Positions 4,186 through 10,631 of a stretch of 17,455 nucleotides of DNA are shown piece after piece. The notes below the pieces were generated by a model, which saw nothing but the letters and a program-made list of their open reading frames with translations, was not told the DNA's origin and ran no database searches. The stretch is from Promethearchaeota archaeon (GTDB lineage: Archaea; Asgardarchaeota; Lokiarchaeia; Sigyniarchaeales; SOKP01). A program made the translations under genes and the position numbers. The stretch covers positions 1 to 17,455 of the forward strand of contig RDOE01000069.1 of the NCBI GenBank assembly GCA_011364975.1. The letters run 5' to 3'. The stretch's first letter is position 1; each line of letters begins with the position of its first letter.

Positions 4186-4464
4186 CTATTCTAAGTGTTT
4201 CTTTAAATCAATATATATCGGGATTTTCTCTCCCTTTTTCTGGATTTCTACCTTTAATAATCCGCTCTCGATAGACGTACTAAGGAGTTCCATGCCTTCC
4301 TCTGCGGATTCTTTAATCCCGGCACGTTCGGGACGCTTAGTTTTATTTTTTAAGCAGGTGTGAGCCTCGTCATATAAGTTACAATGCGAACAACAAAATC
4401 CTACTGGCATGTACCCAACTATAGAACATTGATCGAAGTTATCGCAATTACAATTATTGCAAAT
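4186..4464 (-). CDS. Small 8-Cys protein, paralog 3 (92 aa if started at ATT 4464); probable metal or Fe-S binding
   Basis: The track ORF 4186..4410 extends upstream in frame as (I)CNNCNCDNFDQCSIVGY-MPVGFCCSHCNLYDEAHTC, aligning residue for residue with the two neighbours. ATT sits at the paralogs' Met position, 6 nt after a GGTGA SD. Start position is inferred. Confidence 0.8.
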   Translation of the reverse strand: MCNNCNCDNFDQCSIVGYMPVGFCCSHCNLYDEAHTCLKNKTKRPERAGIKESAEEGMELLSTSIESGLLKVEIQKKGEKIPIYIDLKKHLE

Positions 4465-4470
4465 ACGCCC

Positions 4471-4725
4471 TCACCTTTCTTTATTTATAGTAGGAGTAAC
4501 TGTCTCCGCTTTTTCCTTAATCTGTTGTTTGACTTTGGTTTCTGAGACAATTTTTAAATGGTCCACATTACCACTTACATATTTCGCAGCGTAAATAATA
4601 TAATTTTCGCAGGTTAGTCTATTCTCATACCCGACACATTTTTCACAACAAAACCCGATGGGCATATTACCTAGAATAGAACAGCAATGATGCATTTCAT
4701 GCATACAATCACAATGATTACACAT
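4471..4725 (-). CDS. Small 8-Cys protein, paralog 2 (84 aa, extra His/Met/Cys insert)
   Basis: MCNHCDCMHEMHHCCSILGNMPIGFCCEKCVGYENRLTC; GGAGG SD upstream; shares motif with both neighbours. Confidence 0.88.
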   Translation of the reverse strand: MCNHCDCMHEMHHCCSILGNMPIGFCCEKCVGYENRLTCENYIIYAAKYVSGNVDHLKIVSETKVKQQIKEKAETVTPTINKER

Positions 4726-4741
4726 ATTTTATCCCCCTCCA

Positions 4742-4918
4742 TTAATTAATAATCGCAATGTGCACTGGGATTTCTTCTTTCCCGAAATTCTCTTCCTTTA
4801 CAAATTCAAAACATACTTCCCGAGCCTCTTGATGAACGCATTTTGGACAACAAAATGCCACTGGGAAATATCCGACTATTGAACAGCGCTCATAATTCTC
4901 ACAATCACAGTTGCACAT
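4742..4918 (-). CDS. Small 8-Cys protein, paralog 1 (58 aa; absent from ORF track)
   Basis: Hand translation: MCNCDCENYERCSIVGYFPVAFCCPKCVHQEAREVCFEFVKEENFGKEEIPVHIAIIN*; AGGT SD-like motif upstream; stop 16 nt before paralog 2. Confidence 0.88.
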   Translation of the reverse strand: MCNCDCENYERCSIVGYFPVAFCCPKCVHQEAREVCFEFVKEENFGKEEIPVHIAIIN

Positions 4919-4946
4919 TTTTTATGACCTTTTATACAGTTTTTTT

Positions 4947-4970
4947 AATTATGATTTTTTTATCATAATT
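4947..4970. promoter_or_regulatory. Perfect 9-6-9 inverted repeat, candidate operator of the Cys-rich operon
   Basis: AATTATGAT-TTTTTT-ATCATAATT, between the TATA box (5002-5010) and the ATG at 4918. Confidence 0.6.
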
Positions 4971-5016: not shown

Positions 5017-5165
5017 TATTTCGATCATATCGCAATGATACCTAGACTTTTTCGACTATTTCGATCAGTCAGATGAATCGAATGAAAAATATTATTCCTT
5101 TCCGATAATCCAAACATGATTCTATGATCAACTAAGTATAAATGATCAAAAATAGTTATTGATCT
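5017..5165. repeat. Cluster of five YGATC(A/T) motifs including an 11-bp direct repeat TATTTCGATCA
   Basis: GATC at 5023, 5063, 5126, 5144 and 5161; TATTTCGATCA at 5017-5027 and 5057-5067 (40 bp apart). Confidence 0.6.
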
Positions 5166-5341
5166 GCACAAAAATGAAAATATTGACGAATCTTGCACAT
5201 TTTTTGTTGATGATACAATCATGAAAATGGTGATTTTCTTGTAGACCGAAAAATTTCGAATAAAAATTCGCAAAAGAGTAATTAACTTATGATAAATAAG
5301 AAAAGTGTGAATAGATTAATATATCATGAAAAGGTGGATTT

Positions 5342-5575
5342 ATGGAATATCCTGGCAATATATTTCATATGAAAAAGACAGCCAAATACTTTTTTTTACC
5401 TGCAATGGTAATGTTAATATTATTAATTCTAGTTTTTTATAGTAATAGTTATAAATCAATTAAAGCGCTCGGACTTGAGATCGTGGGTAATGCAATTGTA
5501 GGCATGATTATAGCGCTAATAGTTTTAACAACTATGATGTGGATTTACTTTAATATAAAACGTAGAAATGAATAA
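5342..5575 (+). CDS. Small membrane protein (2 TM helices), unknown function
   Basis: Two long hydrophobic stretches with basic flanks; GGTGG SD-like motif before the ATG (ATG at 5369 is an alternative). Confidence 0.65.
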   Translation: MEYPGNIFHMKKTAKYFFLPAMVMLILLILVFYSNSYKSIKALGLEIVGNAIVGMIIALIVLTTMMWIYFNIKRRNE

Positions 5576-5669
5576 TTTTGAAACACTATAATTAAGCATA
5601 CCAATTAATAACAATTCTTCTTCATAATAAAATTAAAAAAAATATAAAAAAAAGTTTAGAAATTTGCAA

Positions 5670-6068
5670 TTATTTTTTTTCTTCTCTTATATAGAAAAAG
5701 ATGTCAAAAATTAACAATACAATCATAACGGTTGTATCAAGCCAATGAAATACAAGATTTGTTGCTGTACGTATTATATAGGTATTGGATGTGAGATTAA
5801 CGAGGATTAAAATTATCAAAAATGTTATTGCATATAACATCAACAATTTTACTTTTTCCCAGTCTCCCATTTTCAATCCAACTATTCCGGCGATTCCTAT
5901 TGCGAACAATATTCCCCCAAAAAGTCTCCAGAAATGAGGATCGAAAAATGGGGCTTCATTTACAGAATAGACCGTCTCAGGGAGGAATAGGTACATTATA
6001 CCATAGATGAAAGCGACGATAATATGAACTATTAATAAAATTTTATACTCTCTAGACATTTCTGCCAT
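5670..6068 (-). CDS. Four-TM membrane protein, unknown function
   Basis: Four hydrophobic segments, P..F.DPH..R.FGG motif; GGTG SD upstream. Confidence 0.85.
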   Translation of the reverse strand: MAEMSREYKILLIVHIIVAFIYGIMYLFLPETVYSVNEAPFFDPHFWRLFGGILFAIGIAGIVGLKMGDWEKVKLLMLYAITFLIILILVNLTSNTYIIRTATNLVFHWLDTTVMIVLLIFDIFFYIREEKK

Positions 6069-6391
6069 AAATATTACACCTTGAGGTTTGTGGTTAGATT
6101 AGATTTCTGAGGAATATTAATTCATAGGAGTATAAAAATGTTAACAAAAATGTAAAGATAATATCTCCCTAGTAATATTACATGAAGTTCAATATTACTA
6201 CTTGGTGCTTTATAGAAGGTTATTATACACAAAAAACTTTAAATACGCTATAATTAAAAAATATCCTTAAGAAAATTAAAATCTCATTTATTAAACAAAA
6301 CTGTGTTTTGGTAAGCAAAGTTGTAATCAATAGGTTTTGCAGAATTCTTTTTAATAAAACACACACTCATAAATAAGGTGGTTTATGAAAT

Positions 6392-7633
6392 ATGTCTAAT
6401 AATCAGTCGAGGATCTTAATGAACACAGAATTTAAAAGAACACGCTACCTTTTTCTTGATAATATAAAGGTCCTTTTTACCGTTCTAGTGATTTACTGGC
6501 ATGTAATGGTTACTTATGTAGAAGCAGGTTGGTGGTATTATAAAGAGGTTAATATAGTTGATCCTATAAGTTATATCTTCTTTCTACTTTTAACTTCAAT
6601 TGGAGGTGTGTTTCAAACCTCACTCCTGGGATTATTCTTTTTATTAGGGGGTTATTTTACACCTAAAAGTTATGATCGAAAAGGTGTTTGGAGCTTCTGG
6701 AAAGAACGACTTATTCGTCTTGGTATCCCTCTTCTTTTATATATCGTATTGATTAATCCTATTCTGATTTATAGCCTAGCCAAAATAGGGATTCCTCCCT
6801 GGAATACTTTACCAATGTCACAAGGGTCTTTAATAGATTATTATTTCAGTAGATTTTTCTCATGGGAAGCCTTCATTGACTTTTTATCGTTTGGGGGACC
6901 TATGTGGTTTCTCAGGGTTTTACTCATCTTTACTGCGGTTTATACTCTTTGGCGTCAAATTACCAAATTGGGCCCTGTACAACGAAAAATCCCAAAGCAA
7001 CTTTCTATCCCTCGCTACTCTTATTTACTCCTTTCAGCTCTTGGTCTAGGATGTCTTACTTTTATTGTTCGTATATTCTTACCTATAGATACCCGTCCAT
7101 TGGAAATACCATGGGGTCAACTCATTCAATATCTAATGATGTTCAGCATTGGGGTCATTTGTATTCGGTATCTATGGTTCGAAAAAATGACCAGAAAACA
7201 TGTCAAAATCTGGTTACTTACAATTGTAATTTCACTTATAGTAATTTACATCGATTTTATTATAGCGATTGCAATGGATGTAGATTTAATAGATTTTACA
7301 GGAGGAGCCAGTTTGCATGCTTTCCTATTTGCTATGGTCGATAATGTCATTTCTATGGGAGTTATTTTTATCTTAATTAAGGTTTTTTACGCAAAATTCA
7401 ACAAACAAGGACCTATACTACGGAAATTATCTGCTAGCGCATATCATATGTACCTCGTTCATCCCCTTGTGCTTGTCGCTTTATCCCTTGGATTTGCATC
7501 CTTAAGTCTTCTTCCTATTCTAAAAATAGGCATTGTATTTCCATTAGCAATACTCTTTTGTTATCTAATCAGTCATTATATTATCCAAAAACTACATTGG
7601 GAAAAGCACATAAGAGATTCTCAGAATAATTAG
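6392..7633 (+). CDS. Acyltransferase family 3 membrane protein (OpgC/MdoC-like)
   Basis: R..FLDNIKV...LVI..H, LFFLLGGYF..S..RKG...F...RLIRLGIP, GPMWFL..L and S.SAY.MYLVHP motifs; about 10 TM segments. Confidence 0.9.
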   Translation: MSNNQSRILMNTEFKRTRYLFLDNIKVLFTVLVIYWHVMVTYVEAGWWYYKEVNIVDPISYIFFLLLTSIGGVFQTSLLGLFFLLGGYFTPKSYDRKGVWSFWKERLIRLGIPLLLYIVLINPILIYSLAKIGIPPWNTLPMSQGSLIDYYFSRFFSWEAFIDFLSFGGPMWFLRVLLIFTAVYTLWRQITKLGPVQRKIPKQLSIPRYSYLLLSALGLGCLTFIVRIFLPIDTRPLEIPWGQLIQYLMMFSIGVICIRYLWFEKMTRKHVKIWLLTIVISLIVIYIDFIIAIAMDVDLIDFTGGASLHAFLFAMVDNVISMGVIFILIKVFYAKFNKQGPILRKLSASAYHMYLVHPLVLVALSLGFASLSLLPILKIGIVFPLAILFCYLISHYIIQKLHWEKHIRDSQNN

Positions 7634-7671
7634 AACTATATCTGAAATAAAATTTAGGGCTTACTATAAAA

Positions 7672-7680
7672 TTTTTTTTT
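7672..7680 (+). terminator. Oligo-T archaeal terminator candidate
   Basis: T9 tract 38 nt after the acyltransferase stop. Confidence 0.45.
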
Positions 7681-7826
7681 AATAATTACCTTATCTTACT
7701 TTCTTATTTTTTTTAAAATTCGACTTCAAAAGTAGCGGTTTCGAATAGAATTATTTAGTAGCATTCTCCCCAAATTTTTTGCAATATACCTTGTTAAAGA
7801 AGATCTTATCAGAATATAAACACAAC

Positions 7827-7887
7827 AAAAGGTTTAAATATAAAAAAAGATATTTGTTCTATATCGAACAGTTCGATCTCGAACAAA
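7827..7887 (+). promoter_or_regulatory. BRE/TATA promoter with two tandem 14-bp palindromic operators (probable MarR sites)
   Basis: AAAAGG-TTTAAATA (TATA 7833-7840), then GTTCTATATCGAAC (7856-7869) and GTTCGATCTCGAAC (7871-7884) covering the expected start site. Confidence 0.8.
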
Positions 7888-7914
7888 CAAAATTTATAAA
7901 AAGAGGAATTTAAT

Positions 7915-8253
7915 ATGGTAAATATAATTGCTTATTGCGGAATTAACTGTTCCGAGTGTCCTGCTTATTTAGCCACTCAAAAAGATGATTACGAAGAATT
8001 AAAAAAGGTTGCAAAGGAGTGGTCCAATGAATCGATGTCCTTTAAACCAGAAGAGATTTATTGTGATGGTTGTAACCAGGAGGAATGTATCTTTCGTTGG
8101 TGTAGAGAATGCCCTATAAGAAGCTGTTGTAGAGAGAAAGGTTTTAAAAATTGCGCATATTGTGAGGACTACTTCTGTGATAACTTAAAGATGACCTTTG
8201 ATAAAACTCCTTCAGCAAAAGAGAGACTAGACGAAATTCGAAAAAATTTGTGA
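7915..8253 (+). CDS. DUF3795-like Cys-rich protein
   Basis: IAYCGINCSECPAY...CDGC...C.IRSCC..KG..NCAYC...C pattern typical of DUF3795; GAGG SD. Confidence 0.85.
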   Translation: MVNIIAYCGINCSECPAYLATQKDDYEELKKVAKEWSNESMSFKPEEIYCDGCNQEECIFRWCRECPIRSCCREKGFKNCAYCEDYFCDNLKMTFDKTPSAKERLDEIRKNL

Positions 8254-8287
8254 TAACAAAATTACGTTAAATGAAGAGGCGAAAAGT

Positions 8288-8755
8288 ATGGAGTTAGAAG
8301 AAGTCAAAAAGTTAAGTGTAGAATTAATGCAGACCTCTAAAGCGGCCTATTTAACAACCATTGACGCTGAAGGATATCCTATAACAAGAGCAATGTTTAA
8401 TTTAAGGAATCAGGACCAATTCCCTGAATTCTCAGAGTTCTTTAATGGGTTGGGCAATGAATTCGAAATATATATCTCGACAAATACCTCCTCATCTAAA
8501 ACGGAGCATATTATGAGGAATCCTAAAATTTGTGTTTATTATTGCACCCCCGAAGATTTCAAAGGAGTCATGTTTGGAGGAGAAGGAGACATTATTGGAG
8601 ATATGAATATAAAGAAGAAAATATGGTTAGATTGGTGGGCAAAATATTATCCCAAAGGTTTAATGGATCCAGATTACACCCTTCTTCGATTAAAACCGAA
8701 AATAGCGCACTTTTATTACAGATTAGAAAAGGTCCAATTTGTGCCAGGTGAATGA
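8288..8755 (+). CDS. Pyridoxamine 5'-phosphate oxidase-like FMN-binding split-barrel protein (general stress protein 26-like)
   Basis: LTTID.EGYP.TRAM, STNTSSSK..HI..NPK..VY, W..YYP.G..DPDY.LL motifs. Confidence 0.88.
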   Translation: MELEEVKKLSVELMQTSKAAYLTTIDAEGYPITRAMFNLRNQDQFPEFSEFFNGLGNEFEIYISTNTSSSKTEHIMRNPKICVYYCTPEDFKGVMFGGEGDIIGDMNIKKKIWLDWWAKYYPKGLMDPDYTLLRLKPKIAHFYYRLEKVQFVPGE

Positions 8756-9219
8756 ACATAGAAAATATAAGGGAAGGAGGTTTTTTAATTACAAAAATCC
8801 AGCAATTGTCACAACGAATTTTGGCTAAAATGTTGAAAGAAAATGATATACACGATATTAGTGCCGCCCAAGGTAGAGTACTATTTCCACTTTGGATTGA
8901 AGACGATATTTCCTTCCAAGATCTTAAAAAAAAAACTTTATTGAGCAAGGCAACGTTATCTTATATGCTAGATCAGCTTGAAGAAGCGAGTCAAATAAAG
9001 CGAATTCGCTCAAACGACGATAAAAGAATCATAAACATAAAACTAACTAAAATGGATGAAGATTTAAAGCGAAAATTTTTTCAAGTCTCAAATCAGATGA
9101 AAAACATTTTCTATAAAGACTTTACTGAACAAGAAATTGATGATTTTGAAGAATATTTGGAAAAAGTTTTGGAAAACCTAACCAATTATCGTGATAAAAA
9201 CAAATCAGCAAAAGTTTAG
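8752..9219 (+). CDS. MarR family transcriptional regulator
   Basis: AQGRVLFPLW..D.IS...L...T.LSKATLS.MLDQLE....IKR.....DKR...I.LT winged-helix signature; ATGA overlap with the upstream gene. Confidence 0.92.
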   Translation: MNIENIREGGFLITKIQQLSQRILAKMLKENDIHDISAAQGRVLFPLWIEDDISFQDLKKKTLLSKATLSYMLDQLEEASQIKRIRSNDDKRIINIKLTKMDEDLKRKFFQVSNQMKNIFYKDFTEQEIDDFEEYLEKVLENLTNYRDKNKSAKV

Positions 9220-9234
9220 TAATAATTTTCAATA

Positions 9235-9243
9235 TTTTTTTTT
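9235..9243 (+). terminator. Oligo-T terminator candidate
   Basis: T9 tract 15 nt after the MarR stop, between convergent genes. Confidence 0.5.
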
Positions 9244-9267
9244 AATACTTCTTAATTACCAAAAGTT

Positions 9268-9867
9268 CTAAAATTCAAATTTAGTGAGATGGGGAAGATA
9301 ATTCAAATCAGGTTTTATGTGTACATTTGTATTTCTTATTCTTAACTCTTGCAGATTTATTAGGTGGTTTAGTCCCTTAATTTCTGAGATCGGATTATTA
9401 TTTAGACTTAAAAATTTAAGCTTACTTAACTTTTCTAACCCTTCTATAGTCTCAATTTGATTATCACTTAACTCTAATCTTTCCAAATTTGTTAATGTAT
9501 CTAAACCCTCTATTTTTTTAATCTTATTGAAACTTAAATCGAGGTTTTGTAGTTTTTTTAATTTTATTAAGCCTTTAATTACAGAAATTTGATTCCCTTT
9601 TAACTCTAATTCTTCCAAATTAATGAGTGAATCTAAACCACTAACCTCTGTAATTAGATTCAATTCTAGATGAAGTTTTCTTAAATCCACATTCTTATCT
9701 AAGGAAGTAATTTGGCTTATTTTATTCTTTTCAAGATATAATTCTCTTAAATTCTTGTACTTTTTTAAGCGCTTTATTTCATCTATACGATTAATCCCAA
9801 AGCTCTCTAAATAGATACTATTATTATCAATGAAAACTCTTCTTGTATTTACTTTTACATACTCCAT
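9268..9867 (-). CDS. Leucine-rich repeat protein (SDS22-like 22-residue repeats)
   Basis: About seven repeats of L..L..L..L.L..N.I..I.G, e.g. LDTLTNLERLELSDNQIETIEG; no signal peptide evident. Confidence 0.93.
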   Translation of the reverse strand: MEYVKVNTRRVFIDNNSIYLESFGINRIDEIKRLKKYKNLRELYLEKNKISQITSLDKNVDLRKLHLELNLITEVSGLDSLINLEELELKGNQISVIKGLIKLKKLQNLDLSFNKIKKIEGLDTLTNLERLELSDNQIETIEGLEKLSKLKFLSLNNNPISEIKGLNHLINLQELRIRNTNVHIKPDLNYLPHLTKFEF

Positions 9868-10211
9868 GTAATTATAACAAATATGCGGCTTATTGAATTA
9901 TTCTAGTTAAAAATATAAAACAAATATATTTTTAGACTATAATTTAAAGGATATTCTCTCTTTTGGATAATAGTTTTAATTACATTTAGTAATGGGGTTA
10001 TAATAATTTTGCAAACATTACTAGATAAAAAGCATCTTTGGTTTCATGGTTATTCTCACAAGGAATTTTTTGTTTTTCGGCATGATATTACTTTTAACTT
10101 ACTAATTTCCAAAAACTTTTATATTTCTATAACCATTTTTGATCATTAGATATTGAAAAATCATAAAATATTTAAAAAAACTATAATAATTATATAATTG
10201 AGTTTAAGAAA

Positions 10212-10631
10212 ATGGATGTTATTGATCTTAAAATATTAGAAGAATTAAAAAGCGATAGTCGGATGTCCTTTAATGATATCAGCGAACGAATCGGAAAGAC
10301 CGAAGCAACAGTGAGACGCCGTGTAAAAAAGCTTATGGAAGAAAATGTTATTAAGCGGTTTACTATTGAATATGAGCTTGATACTAAGCCTAAAACTTCC
10401 GCCACCATAAAAGTTGAGCCTGATTTTAAGGATATTAAGCGGATATTAGCTGAATTATCGAAAATTGAAGAAATTACTTCAATTTGGAGACTTTCAGGGG
10501 ATTGTGGATTATTAATGAAAGTTGATATCCCTTCAATAGAACAATTTAATCCGTTAATTGAAGACAAAATTTCTCCAATTCAAGGTATTAAGATTGTGGA
10601 AACTTGCTTTATAACCGATGTAATAAAATAA
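10212..10631 (+). CDS. Lrp/AsnC family transcriptional regulator
   Basis: MD.IDLKIL..L..DSR.SF..I...IG.TEATV.RRVKKL...VI..F HTH followed by a RAM domain (..LSGDC.L.MKV). Confidence 0.93.
   Translation: MDVIDLKILEELKSDSRMSFNDISERIGKTEATVRRRVKKLMEENVIKRFTIEYELDTKPKTSATIKVEPDFKDIKRILAELSKIEEITSIWRLSGDCGLLMKVDIPSIEQFNPLIEDKISPIQGIKIVETCFITDVIK

Follow-up and report, generated by a model that had tools for sequence, protein, structure and literature searches.

Three small cysteine-rich genes upstream of an hdr cluster

The DNA analyzed in this study, referred to as the window, is the whole 17,455-nucleotide (nt) contig RDOE01000069.1 of the Promethearchaeota archaeon assembly GCA_011364975.1. On its minus strand are three small genes, designated c1, c2, and c3, which stand directly upstream of genes for heterodisulfide reductase (Hdr)-type proteins and share a module with eight cysteines (8-Cys). 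The c1 gene (4918-4742) encodes 58 amino acids (aa) from an ATG start, with the module at residues 1-36 (4811-4918) followed by a short tail. The c2 gene (4725-4471) encodes 84 aa, also from ATG, and ends at a TGA stop (4473-4471). Its module occupies residues 1-39 (4609-4725) and shows x7 spacing, with two extra residues ahead of the fourth Cys, as well as a ninth Cys and a GYENR signature. The c3 gene (4464-4186), designated type L, encodes 92 aa, in which the module (residues 1-37; 4354-4464) is followed by a linker and a C-terminal beta-meander. A Shine-Dalgarno-like purine run precedes each gene. Alignments A1 and A2 gave the common motif C-x1-2-C-x-C-x5-7-C-S-I-[VL]-G-x2-P-x-[AG]-F-C-C-x2-C-x8-C, and the residues invariant across c1-c3 (c3 numbering) were C2, N3, C5, C7, C13, S14, I15, G17, P20, F23, C24, C25, C28, and C37. 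An initial annotation, made from the sequence alone, had described three co-oriented minus-strand genes with a common eight-Cys motif, and our coordinates and translations agreed with it.

It had also remarked that the list of open reading frames (ORFs) missed one copy and shortened another, and this was correct. c1 was absent from the list because its 58 aa fall below the default 60-aa cut-off. For c3 the list gave only a 74-aa frame that begins at an internal ATG (4410), as the true start is ATT and no ATG, GTG, or TTG occurs where the module begins. The ATT (4464-4462) is 5 nt 3' of a Shine-Dalgarno-like GGTGAGG. In most loci the type-L orthologues have ATG at the aligned start position, with ATC in G018 and G010 and TTG in two other species (one of them G024); the middle copy of G281 starts at ATT too. 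The c3 ATT was unchanged in contigs of four sequencing runs (DNA and RNA), which differ from the window at 6-11 other positions. Since none of these positions falls at 4462-4464 in any contig, the ATT is not an assembly error. Seven database protein clusters with 77-99% identity to c3 were recorded solely as 74-aa truncations. On the simplest reading, c3 would be initiated at AUU/AUC behind a strong ribosome-binding site.

The reading frame of c3 is that of c2, and the c3 ATT stands two codons past the c2 TGA. This layout (4462-4473, minus strand), in which GGTGAGG overlaps the stop, would suit termination-reinitiation coupling. A c2-c3 fusion by read-through or by selenocysteine at the c2 TGA was considered and rejected: c2-type orthologues stop at TAA, TAG, or TGA with no conserved recoding, and the closest clade has a further in-frame stop between the two genes. 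A pseudogene that has lost a working start was likewise rejected as the principal interpretation of c3: consensus module is encoded by the 18 codons that precede the internal ATG, ATT and ATC recur in other species, and the ATT is kept in the contigs of all four runs.

A conserved family confined to few lineages

The 8-Cys microproteins are an undescribed, selected, and lineage-restricted family of small cytoplasmic proteins of about 50-110 aa. The consensus module, about 37 residues at the N-terminus, is M-C-N-x-C-x-C-x5-C-S-I-V-G-x2-P-x-G-F-C-C-x2-C-x8-C. When the window's own assembly (3.74 Mb, 99% complete) was searched in six frames with c2, only the other two copies were found (E 2.5e-6 and 6.5e-4). 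A profile of the three modules gave strong matches (E<1e-7) in 31 of 36 same-genus genomes, with 1-4 clustered copies each, and also matched four genomes of other families. Among 1.84 billion cluster representatives, 53 proteins matched at E<=0.001, two of them low-complexity repeats; 52 were 49-110 aa long and one repeat protein had 143 aa, and in nearly all the module began at residue 1. A search of a 5.8-billion-protein collection with c3 returned 80 matches, none with a Pfam domain. Those with a name read 'hypothetical protein' save one stray JGI label, and the named NCBI records belonged to metagenome-assembled genomes (MAGs) of Promethearchaeota or Thorarchaeota.

A profile survey of the phylum found the family in 109 of 400 genomes. 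It was present in 103 of 134 genomes of the window's own taxonomic family and in 5 of 265 elsewhere, and it was not found in the searched single-contig genomes of the neighboring family. The homologues that the initial annotation had proposed to look for thus exist. The relevance it had claimed, to non-methanogenic archaea at large, went too far: with few exceptions the family belongs to a single taxonomic family and therefore offers no general answer for archaeal Hdr.

The profile scores of c1, c2, and c3 themselves (E 6.5e-23, 2.0e-22, and 2.0e-23) are circular, as the profile was built from them. Membership was tested independently with relatives' genes, which score down to E 6.9e-23, and with a set of 207 distinct modules, 183 of which have all eight Cys aligned. 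In 11 modules only the last Cys was unaligned, and it was present at a shorter spacing where checked (e.g., P0021, P0039, and P0043). Another 12 were N-terminally truncated calls or contig ends, and one has lost four Cys. Other positions were also conserved in this set: N3 (86%), S14 (96%), I15 (90%), G17 (94%), P20 (86%), G22 (89%), F23 (88%), and Y31 (86%), with I15, V16, F23, and Y31 in the range of 82-90%. Each of c1-c3 has the module at residue 1, Cys at C2, C5, C7, C13, C24, C25, C28, and C37, and the S-I-V-G and P-x-G-F segments.

Between the window and its relatives synonymous sites were saturated, and the nonsynonymous divergence (dN) of the module was 0.10-0.18 for c3, 0.17-0.21 for c1, and 0.25-0.44 for c2. 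The c2 value was 0.25-0.29 against the closest clade, and all copies gave 0.10-0.29 against the nearest clade. Orthologues of c3 showed 62-70% identity over 92 aa (best 14 of the matches listed), those of c1 58-61% over 57 aa in five relatives' loci, and the positional orthologues of c2 39-48% over 76-82 aa in 11 loci. Identities to the paralogues in the window, over the module only, were 46-47% for c3, 47-49% for c1, and 46-49% for c2. The copies resemble other species' orthologues more than their window paralogues, which places the duplications before the split of the species compared. As judged from these substitution patterns, all three copies are under purifying selection. The old triplication under purifying selection that had been proposed is borne out by the saturated synonymous sites, the low module dN, and the orthologues that each copy has elsewhere.

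Comparison with sequence and structure databases

Neither Pfam nor NCBIfam gave any match to c1-c3 at E<=10, and when 68 members were scanned singly against Pfam, no family matched more than two of them. Searching all PDB sequences with a profile returned nothing at E<=10. Foldseek with the c3 model against PDB gave nothing at E<=0.001, and its weak rows fit only a generic three-stranded meander. In the ESM Atlas the whole protein matched only its own unnamed Promethearchaeota clusters (0.94), and the module alone gave no usable match among named clusters. Rfam gave no match at the gathering score over the whole window. No publication describing the family was found at title and abstract level; supplementary gene tables might list such genes.

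We also compared the proteins with individual families. The CxxCxxCxxxCP motif of the Fer4 clan is absent, and none of the 68 members matched Fer4 at E<=10. The CCG domain PF02754 gave no match, and comparing A3, the family profile, with A4, the HdrB alignment, in hhalign gave a probability of 0.3%. DsrC/TusE (PF04358) was not matched by c1-c3 or by any of the 68 members, and the Cys residues are N-terminal and not on a C-terminal arm. No member matched MvhD/FlpD (PF02662); three other genes in the relatives' cluster scored E 1e-52 with this model. One of the 68 members matched Metallothio_Euk at E 0.3, and the family has conserved hydrophobic and aromatic positions. Two of the 68 matched zf_C2H2_10 at E 0.11 or weaker. 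No rubredoxin or zinc-ribbon model was matched; the CxxC pair C25-C28 is invariant, C2-C5 is usually CxxC but CxC in c1 and P0038, and the structure models are of low confidence. Precursors of ribosomally synthesized and post-translationally modified peptides (RiPPs) gave no NCBIfam match, and neither the window nor the annotated loci had a radical-SAM or other maturase gene next to the 8-Cys genes. These results uphold the description of the module as unrecognized in Pfam, NCBIfam, and PDB sequences, and as neither a ferredoxin nor a CCG domain.

Anatomy of the module and its tails

AlphaFold2 was run on full-length c3 with alignment A3 (68 rows). The Cys module had a predicted local distance difference test score (pLDDT) of 56-65 and essentially no secondary structure. 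The module alone (91 rows) gave a mean pLDDT of 59.7. A low-confidence fold in these models is what would be expected of a metal-held fold, as AlphaFold2 does not model the metal, but it is not positive evidence. The beta-meander of the c3 tail (residues 58-86; 4207-4293, minus strand) was predicted at a pLDDT of about 82, with three strands that are conserved in type L, followed by a short helix (to residue 91).

Type L is the most widely held subfamily. Every same-genus locus fetched has one, and no other member in those loci lies closer to hdrC. Genus g28 gave matches in 40 genomes, one per genome, and the five members inspected were type L. Members of the c2 type share the x7 spacing, the GYENR signature, and a basic end, and other subfamilies have a recurrent F-C-L-K ... 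Y-P ending. The database protein P0002 (86 aa) has its tail replaced by a segment that matches the C-terminal part of the GerE/LuxR helix-turn-helix (HTH; E 2.5e-4); this single case may be a chimeric or rearranged gene.

One variant bears on the arrangement of the Cys residues. P0050, a single cluster with a type-L tail, keeps C5, C7, C13, and C25 and has lost exactly C2, C24, C28, and C37. Across the family, the variable spacings are those around C2 (x1-x3) and C37 (x5-x10). These losses and spacings suggest that the module may hold two four-Cys sites with interleaved ligands.

Linkage to the hdr gene cluster

As mapped in the window, an hdrC-like gene (4005-3511, minus strand; 164 aa; 4Fe-4S dicluster, Pfam PF13183, E 6.6e-11) begins 180 nt downstream of c3. 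On the same strand follow an hdrB-like gene (3504-2629; 291 aa) with two CCG domains (Pfam PF02754, E 4e-25, two stretches), an hdrA-like gene (2594-1278; 438 aa) with an FAD/pyridine-nucleotide-disulfide fold and an inserted 4Fe-4S domain, and a second hdrA-like gene (1270-2) that is cut by the contig end, with 423 aa visible vs 561 aa in the relative G036. The domains are those expected of HdrC, HdrB, and two HdrA-like flavoproteins, in line with the hdrCBAA order first read from the sequence. In the 26-row alignment A4, both five-Cys sets of HdrB (C9, C41, C42, C77, and C80; C151, C191, C192, C227, and C230) were invariant.

We then examined 55 loci of relatives, comprising 35 from a first draw (32 same genus, 3 other families) and 20 from 12 other genera; these 20 belong to other genera of the window's family, except one outside it. 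The 8-Cys genes were co-oriented and upstream of hdrC within about 600 nt in 33 loci (27 in the first draw and 6 in the second) and divergent from it within the same distance in 11 (3 and 8, respectively). hdrC was thus close in 44 of 55 loci, 30 of 35 in the first draw and 14 of 20 in the second, and the linkage proposed on the basis of the window alone proved recurrent. Of the remainder, four loci had hdr genes at 1.3-3.1 kb, one (G268) was divergent to frhB-hdrA with no hdrCB, three ended on the critical side of the contig, and three had no hdr in the available sequence (two of genus g18 and G056). The linkage was kept in the genomes of three other families (G049, G058, and G059). A second architecture, mostly single-copy, has an FrhB-like gene between hdrB and hdrA.

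The family and the cluster were also absent together. Five of the 36 same-genus genomes lacked the family, and four of these (G020, G023, G028, and G030) also lacked the orthologous HdrB; their best HdrB matches reached 46-48% identity, compared with 68% or more elsewhere. The remaining genome, G025, has a contig that breaks off 500 nt upstream of hdrC.

In the relative G036, the gene order was hdrC, hdrB, hdrA, hdrA', FlpD/MvhD, a fused hdrA-hdrA (1009 aa), FlpD with HTH, a second fused hdrA-hdrA (1003 aa), FlpD, an unknown protein, Fer4_22, FAD/NAD/2Fe-2S, and FrhB-like proteins. From its domain content and general knowledge of such systems, this cluster has the make-up of an Fe-S-rich Flx/Hdr-type bifurcating machine. 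Three successive hdrA-hdrA'-FlpD modules could be seen in this locus (L059; G036:C1:9000-28999); the first has its hdrA halves as two genes (438 + 561 aa), the arrangement of the window, the other two are fused, and one FlpD carries an ArsR-type HTH (E 9.4e-6). The window's own genome, at 99% completeness, has five HdrB-like genes and gave no match to the McrA, ComA, or DsrC families; an E. coli control did match PF04358.

A gene for an Lrp/AsnC-type regulator (10212-10631, plus strand) lies 5.3 kb from the 8-Cys genes in the window, as assigned from 72-86% identity to such neighbors in relatives and from sequence reading. A tblastn map placed Lrp/AsnC orthologues or homologues <=700 nt from the family genes in 13 of the 55 loci of relatives, among them those of the distant G058, G059, and G268; homologues in L044, L045, and L083 were assigned by Pfam. 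The intervening block (5025-10200) looks inserted, because the Lrp gene is only 360-670 nt from the 8-Cys genes in many relatives. It holds an 82-aa ORF with no family, a 132-aa membrane protein, Acyl_transf_3, a Cys-rich DUF3795 protein, a PNPOx-like protein, MarR, and a leucine-rich-repeat protein (the last from sequence reading).

Other surroundings were seen in single loci. In G058 (L045, 7572-9086), an 8-Cys pair and Lrp adjoin a class-I pyridine-nucleotide-disulfide oxidoreductase (dimerization domain), and hdrB/hdrC-like genes follow. In genus g18 (L067 and L068; genomes G189 and G187), a two-gene 8-Cys cluster lies away from hdr, and in L067 the pair stands between the genes for an NADPH-dependent FMN reductase and a PF03692 CxxCxxCC 'zinc- or iron-chelating' protein. 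In the neighboring family, where searches did not find the 8-Cys family, another small Cys-rich ORF of 86-94 aa with 6-7 Cys in 45 residues was found on the minus strand (G050, L061 4852-5109; G054, L065 2108-2389). It is conserved between both genomes and lies about 0.75-0.95 kb upstream of hdrC.

The module inside FrhB-like proteins

In this study, we also found the module as part of a larger protein. P0135 (JGI; three members on two contigs) is a 386-aa protein with FrhB_FdhB_N, FrhB_FdhB_C, and 4Fe-4S domains. Compared with the ordinary FrhB-like proteins of the clusters, it has about 40 additional residues inserted where the N domain meets the C domain, which show the full Cys pattern, and hhalign of A3 against it gave a probability of 97.3% (E 1.8e-11). 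P0136, a 386-aa FrhB_FdhB protein from an NCBI MAG labelled Candidatus Helarc..., carries the same insert, 71% identical to that of P0135 in the region. These inserts indicate that the module can work as a built-in domain of a redox enzyme type that is encoded in hdr clusters. No encoding locus was found for P0135 in genome or metagenome contigs, or for P0136 in genome contigs or in a search of 400 genomes at E<=1e-60.

RNA-library cover and the leader of c1

The stretch was present in 20 public runs, two of which (X19 and X20) are RNA libraries of one study. Their contigs, about 98% identical to the window, covered 4330-4959 (one 630-nt contig) and 4366-4736 plus 4736-4960, and so span c1 and c2 completely, c3 up to codon 33-45, and 41-42 nt of leader. 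Neither run had a contig over the 3' half of c3, the c3-hdrC spacer, or hdrC, an absence of cover that proves nothing. For hdrB there was only a 52-nt piece with loose ends on both sides, probably from another organism. On the transcription of the genes, a check proposed in the initial annotation, these contigs over c1, c2, and the start of c3 give only a hint, since an assembled contig is no proof of transcription, of strand, or of transcript ends; nothing was obtained for the spacer between c3 and hdrC.

In the leader (4919-4960, minus strand), the RNA contigs of both runs stop at 4959/4960, and the DNA contig X2 continues to 5078. This stop is only a weak hint of a 5' end, as both RNA runs come from one study. 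A stretch resembling TTCACAAT / TAAAAATAA was noticed in many relatives (L024-L058) and in the window (4919-4965); it precedes the ATG of the leading small gene by about 22-40 nt. It may act as a promoter element or as a regulator site. The contigs of the RNA libraries run through the window's copy to 4959/4960.

Discussion

We propose that the 8-Cys proteins bind metal (Fe-S or Zn) and are an accessory subunit or redox partner of the Flx/Hdr-type (Hdr/FrhB-type) complex encoded beside them, an explanation to which we give about an even chance. The module would be the metal-binding domain, its eight Cys most likely forming two four-Cys sites for Fe-S clusters or Zn/Fe ions. The beta-meander tail of type L would be a docking or oligomerization element, so that the Cys module might serve as the cofactor site and the tail as the means of attachment to the complex. 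The genes head, or lie divergently beside, a Flx/Hdr-type electron-bifurcation cluster of the form hdrC-hdrB-(frhB)-hdrA-hdrA'-mvhD, often with an Lrp/AsnC gene on the other side. We favor this explanation because the Cys residues are conserved, the linkage to hdr persists through several rearrangements, the family is absent together with the cluster, and the module occurs inserted in FrhB. Metal or Fe-S binding is plausible, since eight near-invariant Cys within about 37 residues that lack a confident metal-free fold would fit it.

Several observations weigh against this explanation. The Cys spacing matches no known Fe-S or Zn motif, and the sequence does not tell Fe-S from Zn. Orthologous hdrCBAA' genes (53-59% identity) occur in G044, G048, G050, G054, and G060 with no family member upstream; these five genomes lie outside the genus, four in the neighboring family and one in another family of the class, and in those lineages the complex therefore evidently works without the family. 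Both loci examined in genus g18 have no hdr within 6 kb, and G056 has none in the 9.5 kb available. Among the 44 linked loci, 11 are divergent from hdrC, and in the co-oriented ones the distance ranges from 87 to about 560 nt. A copy number of 1-4 and fast-diverging tails would be unusual for a fixed stoichiometric enzyme subunit. The genomes compared are kin, and much of the synteny is inherited and not independent. The RNA-library cover is a hint of expression only, as such contigs may contain DNA and both runs belong to one study. When HdrB (A4), HdrC (A5), and c3 (A3) were predicted as a complex, the interface score ipSAE was 0.00 in both runs; the partner's own fold is uncertain, and the result speaks neither for nor against binding.

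The initial annotation had named an Hdr substrate among several possible roles. In this scheme, the module thiols would cycle between dithiol and disulfide (or persulfide) as the electron acceptor at the HdrB active site. DsrC has been postulated as the disulfide for the Desulfovibrio Flx-Hdr complex, and Flx-Hdr is named among the postulated DsrC partners, in the available parts of PMC5296606 and PMC6470260, respectively, so a precedent for such a protein exists. The placement of the genes directly upstream of hdrC-hdrB in 33 of 55 loci and in the window, the retention of both five-Cys CCG sets by HdrB, and the lack of McrA, ComA, and DsrC matches in the window's genome, which leaves no known Hdr substrate system evident there, would all agree with it. 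We nevertheless consider it unlikely. The near-invariance of all eight Cys is the pattern of structural metal ligands and not of one redox pair, the proteins have no flexible C-terminal Cys arm like that of DsrC and no PF04358 match, and no re-oxidizing enzyme is evident. The module also occurs beside or inside FrhB-like proteins where hdrCB is absent (L083 and P0135), and orthologous hdr clusters of other families have no 8-Cys gene, which speaks against an indispensable substrate; no test supported this idea or that of a heterotrimer. We see equally little likelihood in a broader version, in which the proteins would serve an electron-bifurcating Flx/Hdr-type complex as its dedicated, protein-borne redox partner, acting either as a high-potential acceptor at HdrB that stands in for CoM-S-S-CoB or as a new minimal two-cluster 'mini-ferredoxin' fold that plugs into FrhB/HdrA. 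If this were true, paralogues with different tails would route electrons to different partners.

A regulatory role, with a Zn2Cys8 microprotein that controls the hdr cluster by redox or metal status, together with Lrp/AsnC or on nucleic acid, seems slightly less probable again. In its favor, CxxC pairs are typical of zinc knuckles, the 8-Cys genes often run divergently from hdrC, an Lrp/AsnC gene is near in 13 of the 55 loci, and the tail of P0002 resembles part of an HTH. Yet no zinc-finger or DNA-binding family is common to more than two of the 68 members, an insertion into an FrhB-like redox enzyme would be hard to explain, and a Lrp gene beside an operon is most simply that operon's own regulator. 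Less probable still would be a metal store, metallochaperone, or Fe-S scaffold that buffers Fe, Zn, or clusters or delivers them to Hdr/Flx proteins, for instance to the non-cubane clusters of HdrB. The high Cys density, the copy number of 1-4, as for dosage-type functions, and the neighboring cluster with its many Fe-S proteins would suit such a role. The conserved hydrophobic and aromatic core (S-I-V-G, P, G-F, and Y31) and the fixed spacing are unlike metallothioneins, only the single weak match to the eukaryotic metallothionein model was obtained, and the family is tied to one hdr paralogue cluster though the genome has five HdrB-like genes. RiPP precursors, of which SCIFF-type Cys-rich peptides are an example, could also appear as tandem small paralogues with a conserved N-terminal leader and variable C-terminal cores, but we find this highly improbable here: no maturase (radical SAM, cyclase, protease, or exporter) stands beside the genes in any locus examined, NCBIfam gave no match, the conserved part is itself Cys-rich from residue 1, and the type-L tail is conserved and predicted to fold.

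The proposed role as a metal-binding accessory subunit or redox partner is of interest because Hdr-type complexes are widespread in non-methanogenic anaerobes, and a conserved, unannotated metal- or thiol-rich microprotein tied to one hdr cluster, and occurring within an FrhB-like subunit in another lineage, is a concrete candidate partner of such a complex. For non-methanogenic Hdr homologues, other disulfides such as DsrC have been postulated (PMC5296606, in the part available). The locus is also a case of small genes missed or shortened by automatic annotation, with c1 (58 aa) under common cut-offs and c3 starting at ATT.

Among known systems, DsrC, a small protein with Cys that the HdrD-like DsrK reduces and that is a postulated acceptor of FlxABCD-HdrABC, has two redox Cys on a C-terminal arm, whereas the 8-Cys family has eight in an N-terminal 37-residue module, and the two show no sequence relation. 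The likeness lies in a small soluble protein with essential Cys that is genetically tied to CCG-domain disulfide reductases and fills the same logical slot of a protein partner to an Hdr-type enzyme (PMC5296606 and PMC6470260, available parts). MvhD/FlpD, the [2Fe-2S] connector, is likewise a small Cys-ligated metalloprotein of hdr clusters that is free-standing or fused to a larger subunit, and an MvhD-HdrA fusion is stated in the available part of PMC5296606. The clusters, however, already encode three FlpD proteins, and the 8-Cys module is one third the size. The CCG domain of HdrB/HdrD comes from the same gene cluster and also combines an adjacent CC pair with a CxxC pair, but its spacing in HdrB here (CX31-39CCX34-36CXXC) is far from that of the module.

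Clostridial-type 2x[4Fe-4S] ferredoxins resemble the family in having eight Cys in a very small protein. Ligand sharing of the 3+1 / 1+3 kind between two sites is the ferredoxin topology, and the P0050 variant suggests that the module might share its ligands in this way. Unlike ferredoxins, the module has no CxxCxxCxxxCP and has an adjacent CC pair, and at 37 residues it is, to our knowledge, shorter than any known ferredoxin (about 55 aa). Archaeal zinc-finger microproteins and cross-brace Zn2Cys8 domains resemble it in size, Cys count, CxxC knuckles, and a metal-dependent fold. They differ in that no family-level match was found, and the context of the 8-Cys genes is redox enzymes and not information processing. 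The protein family itself is new and of narrow taxonomic range; it would be of a familiar sort, that of small metalloproteins with Cys ligands that are joined to a redox enzyme.

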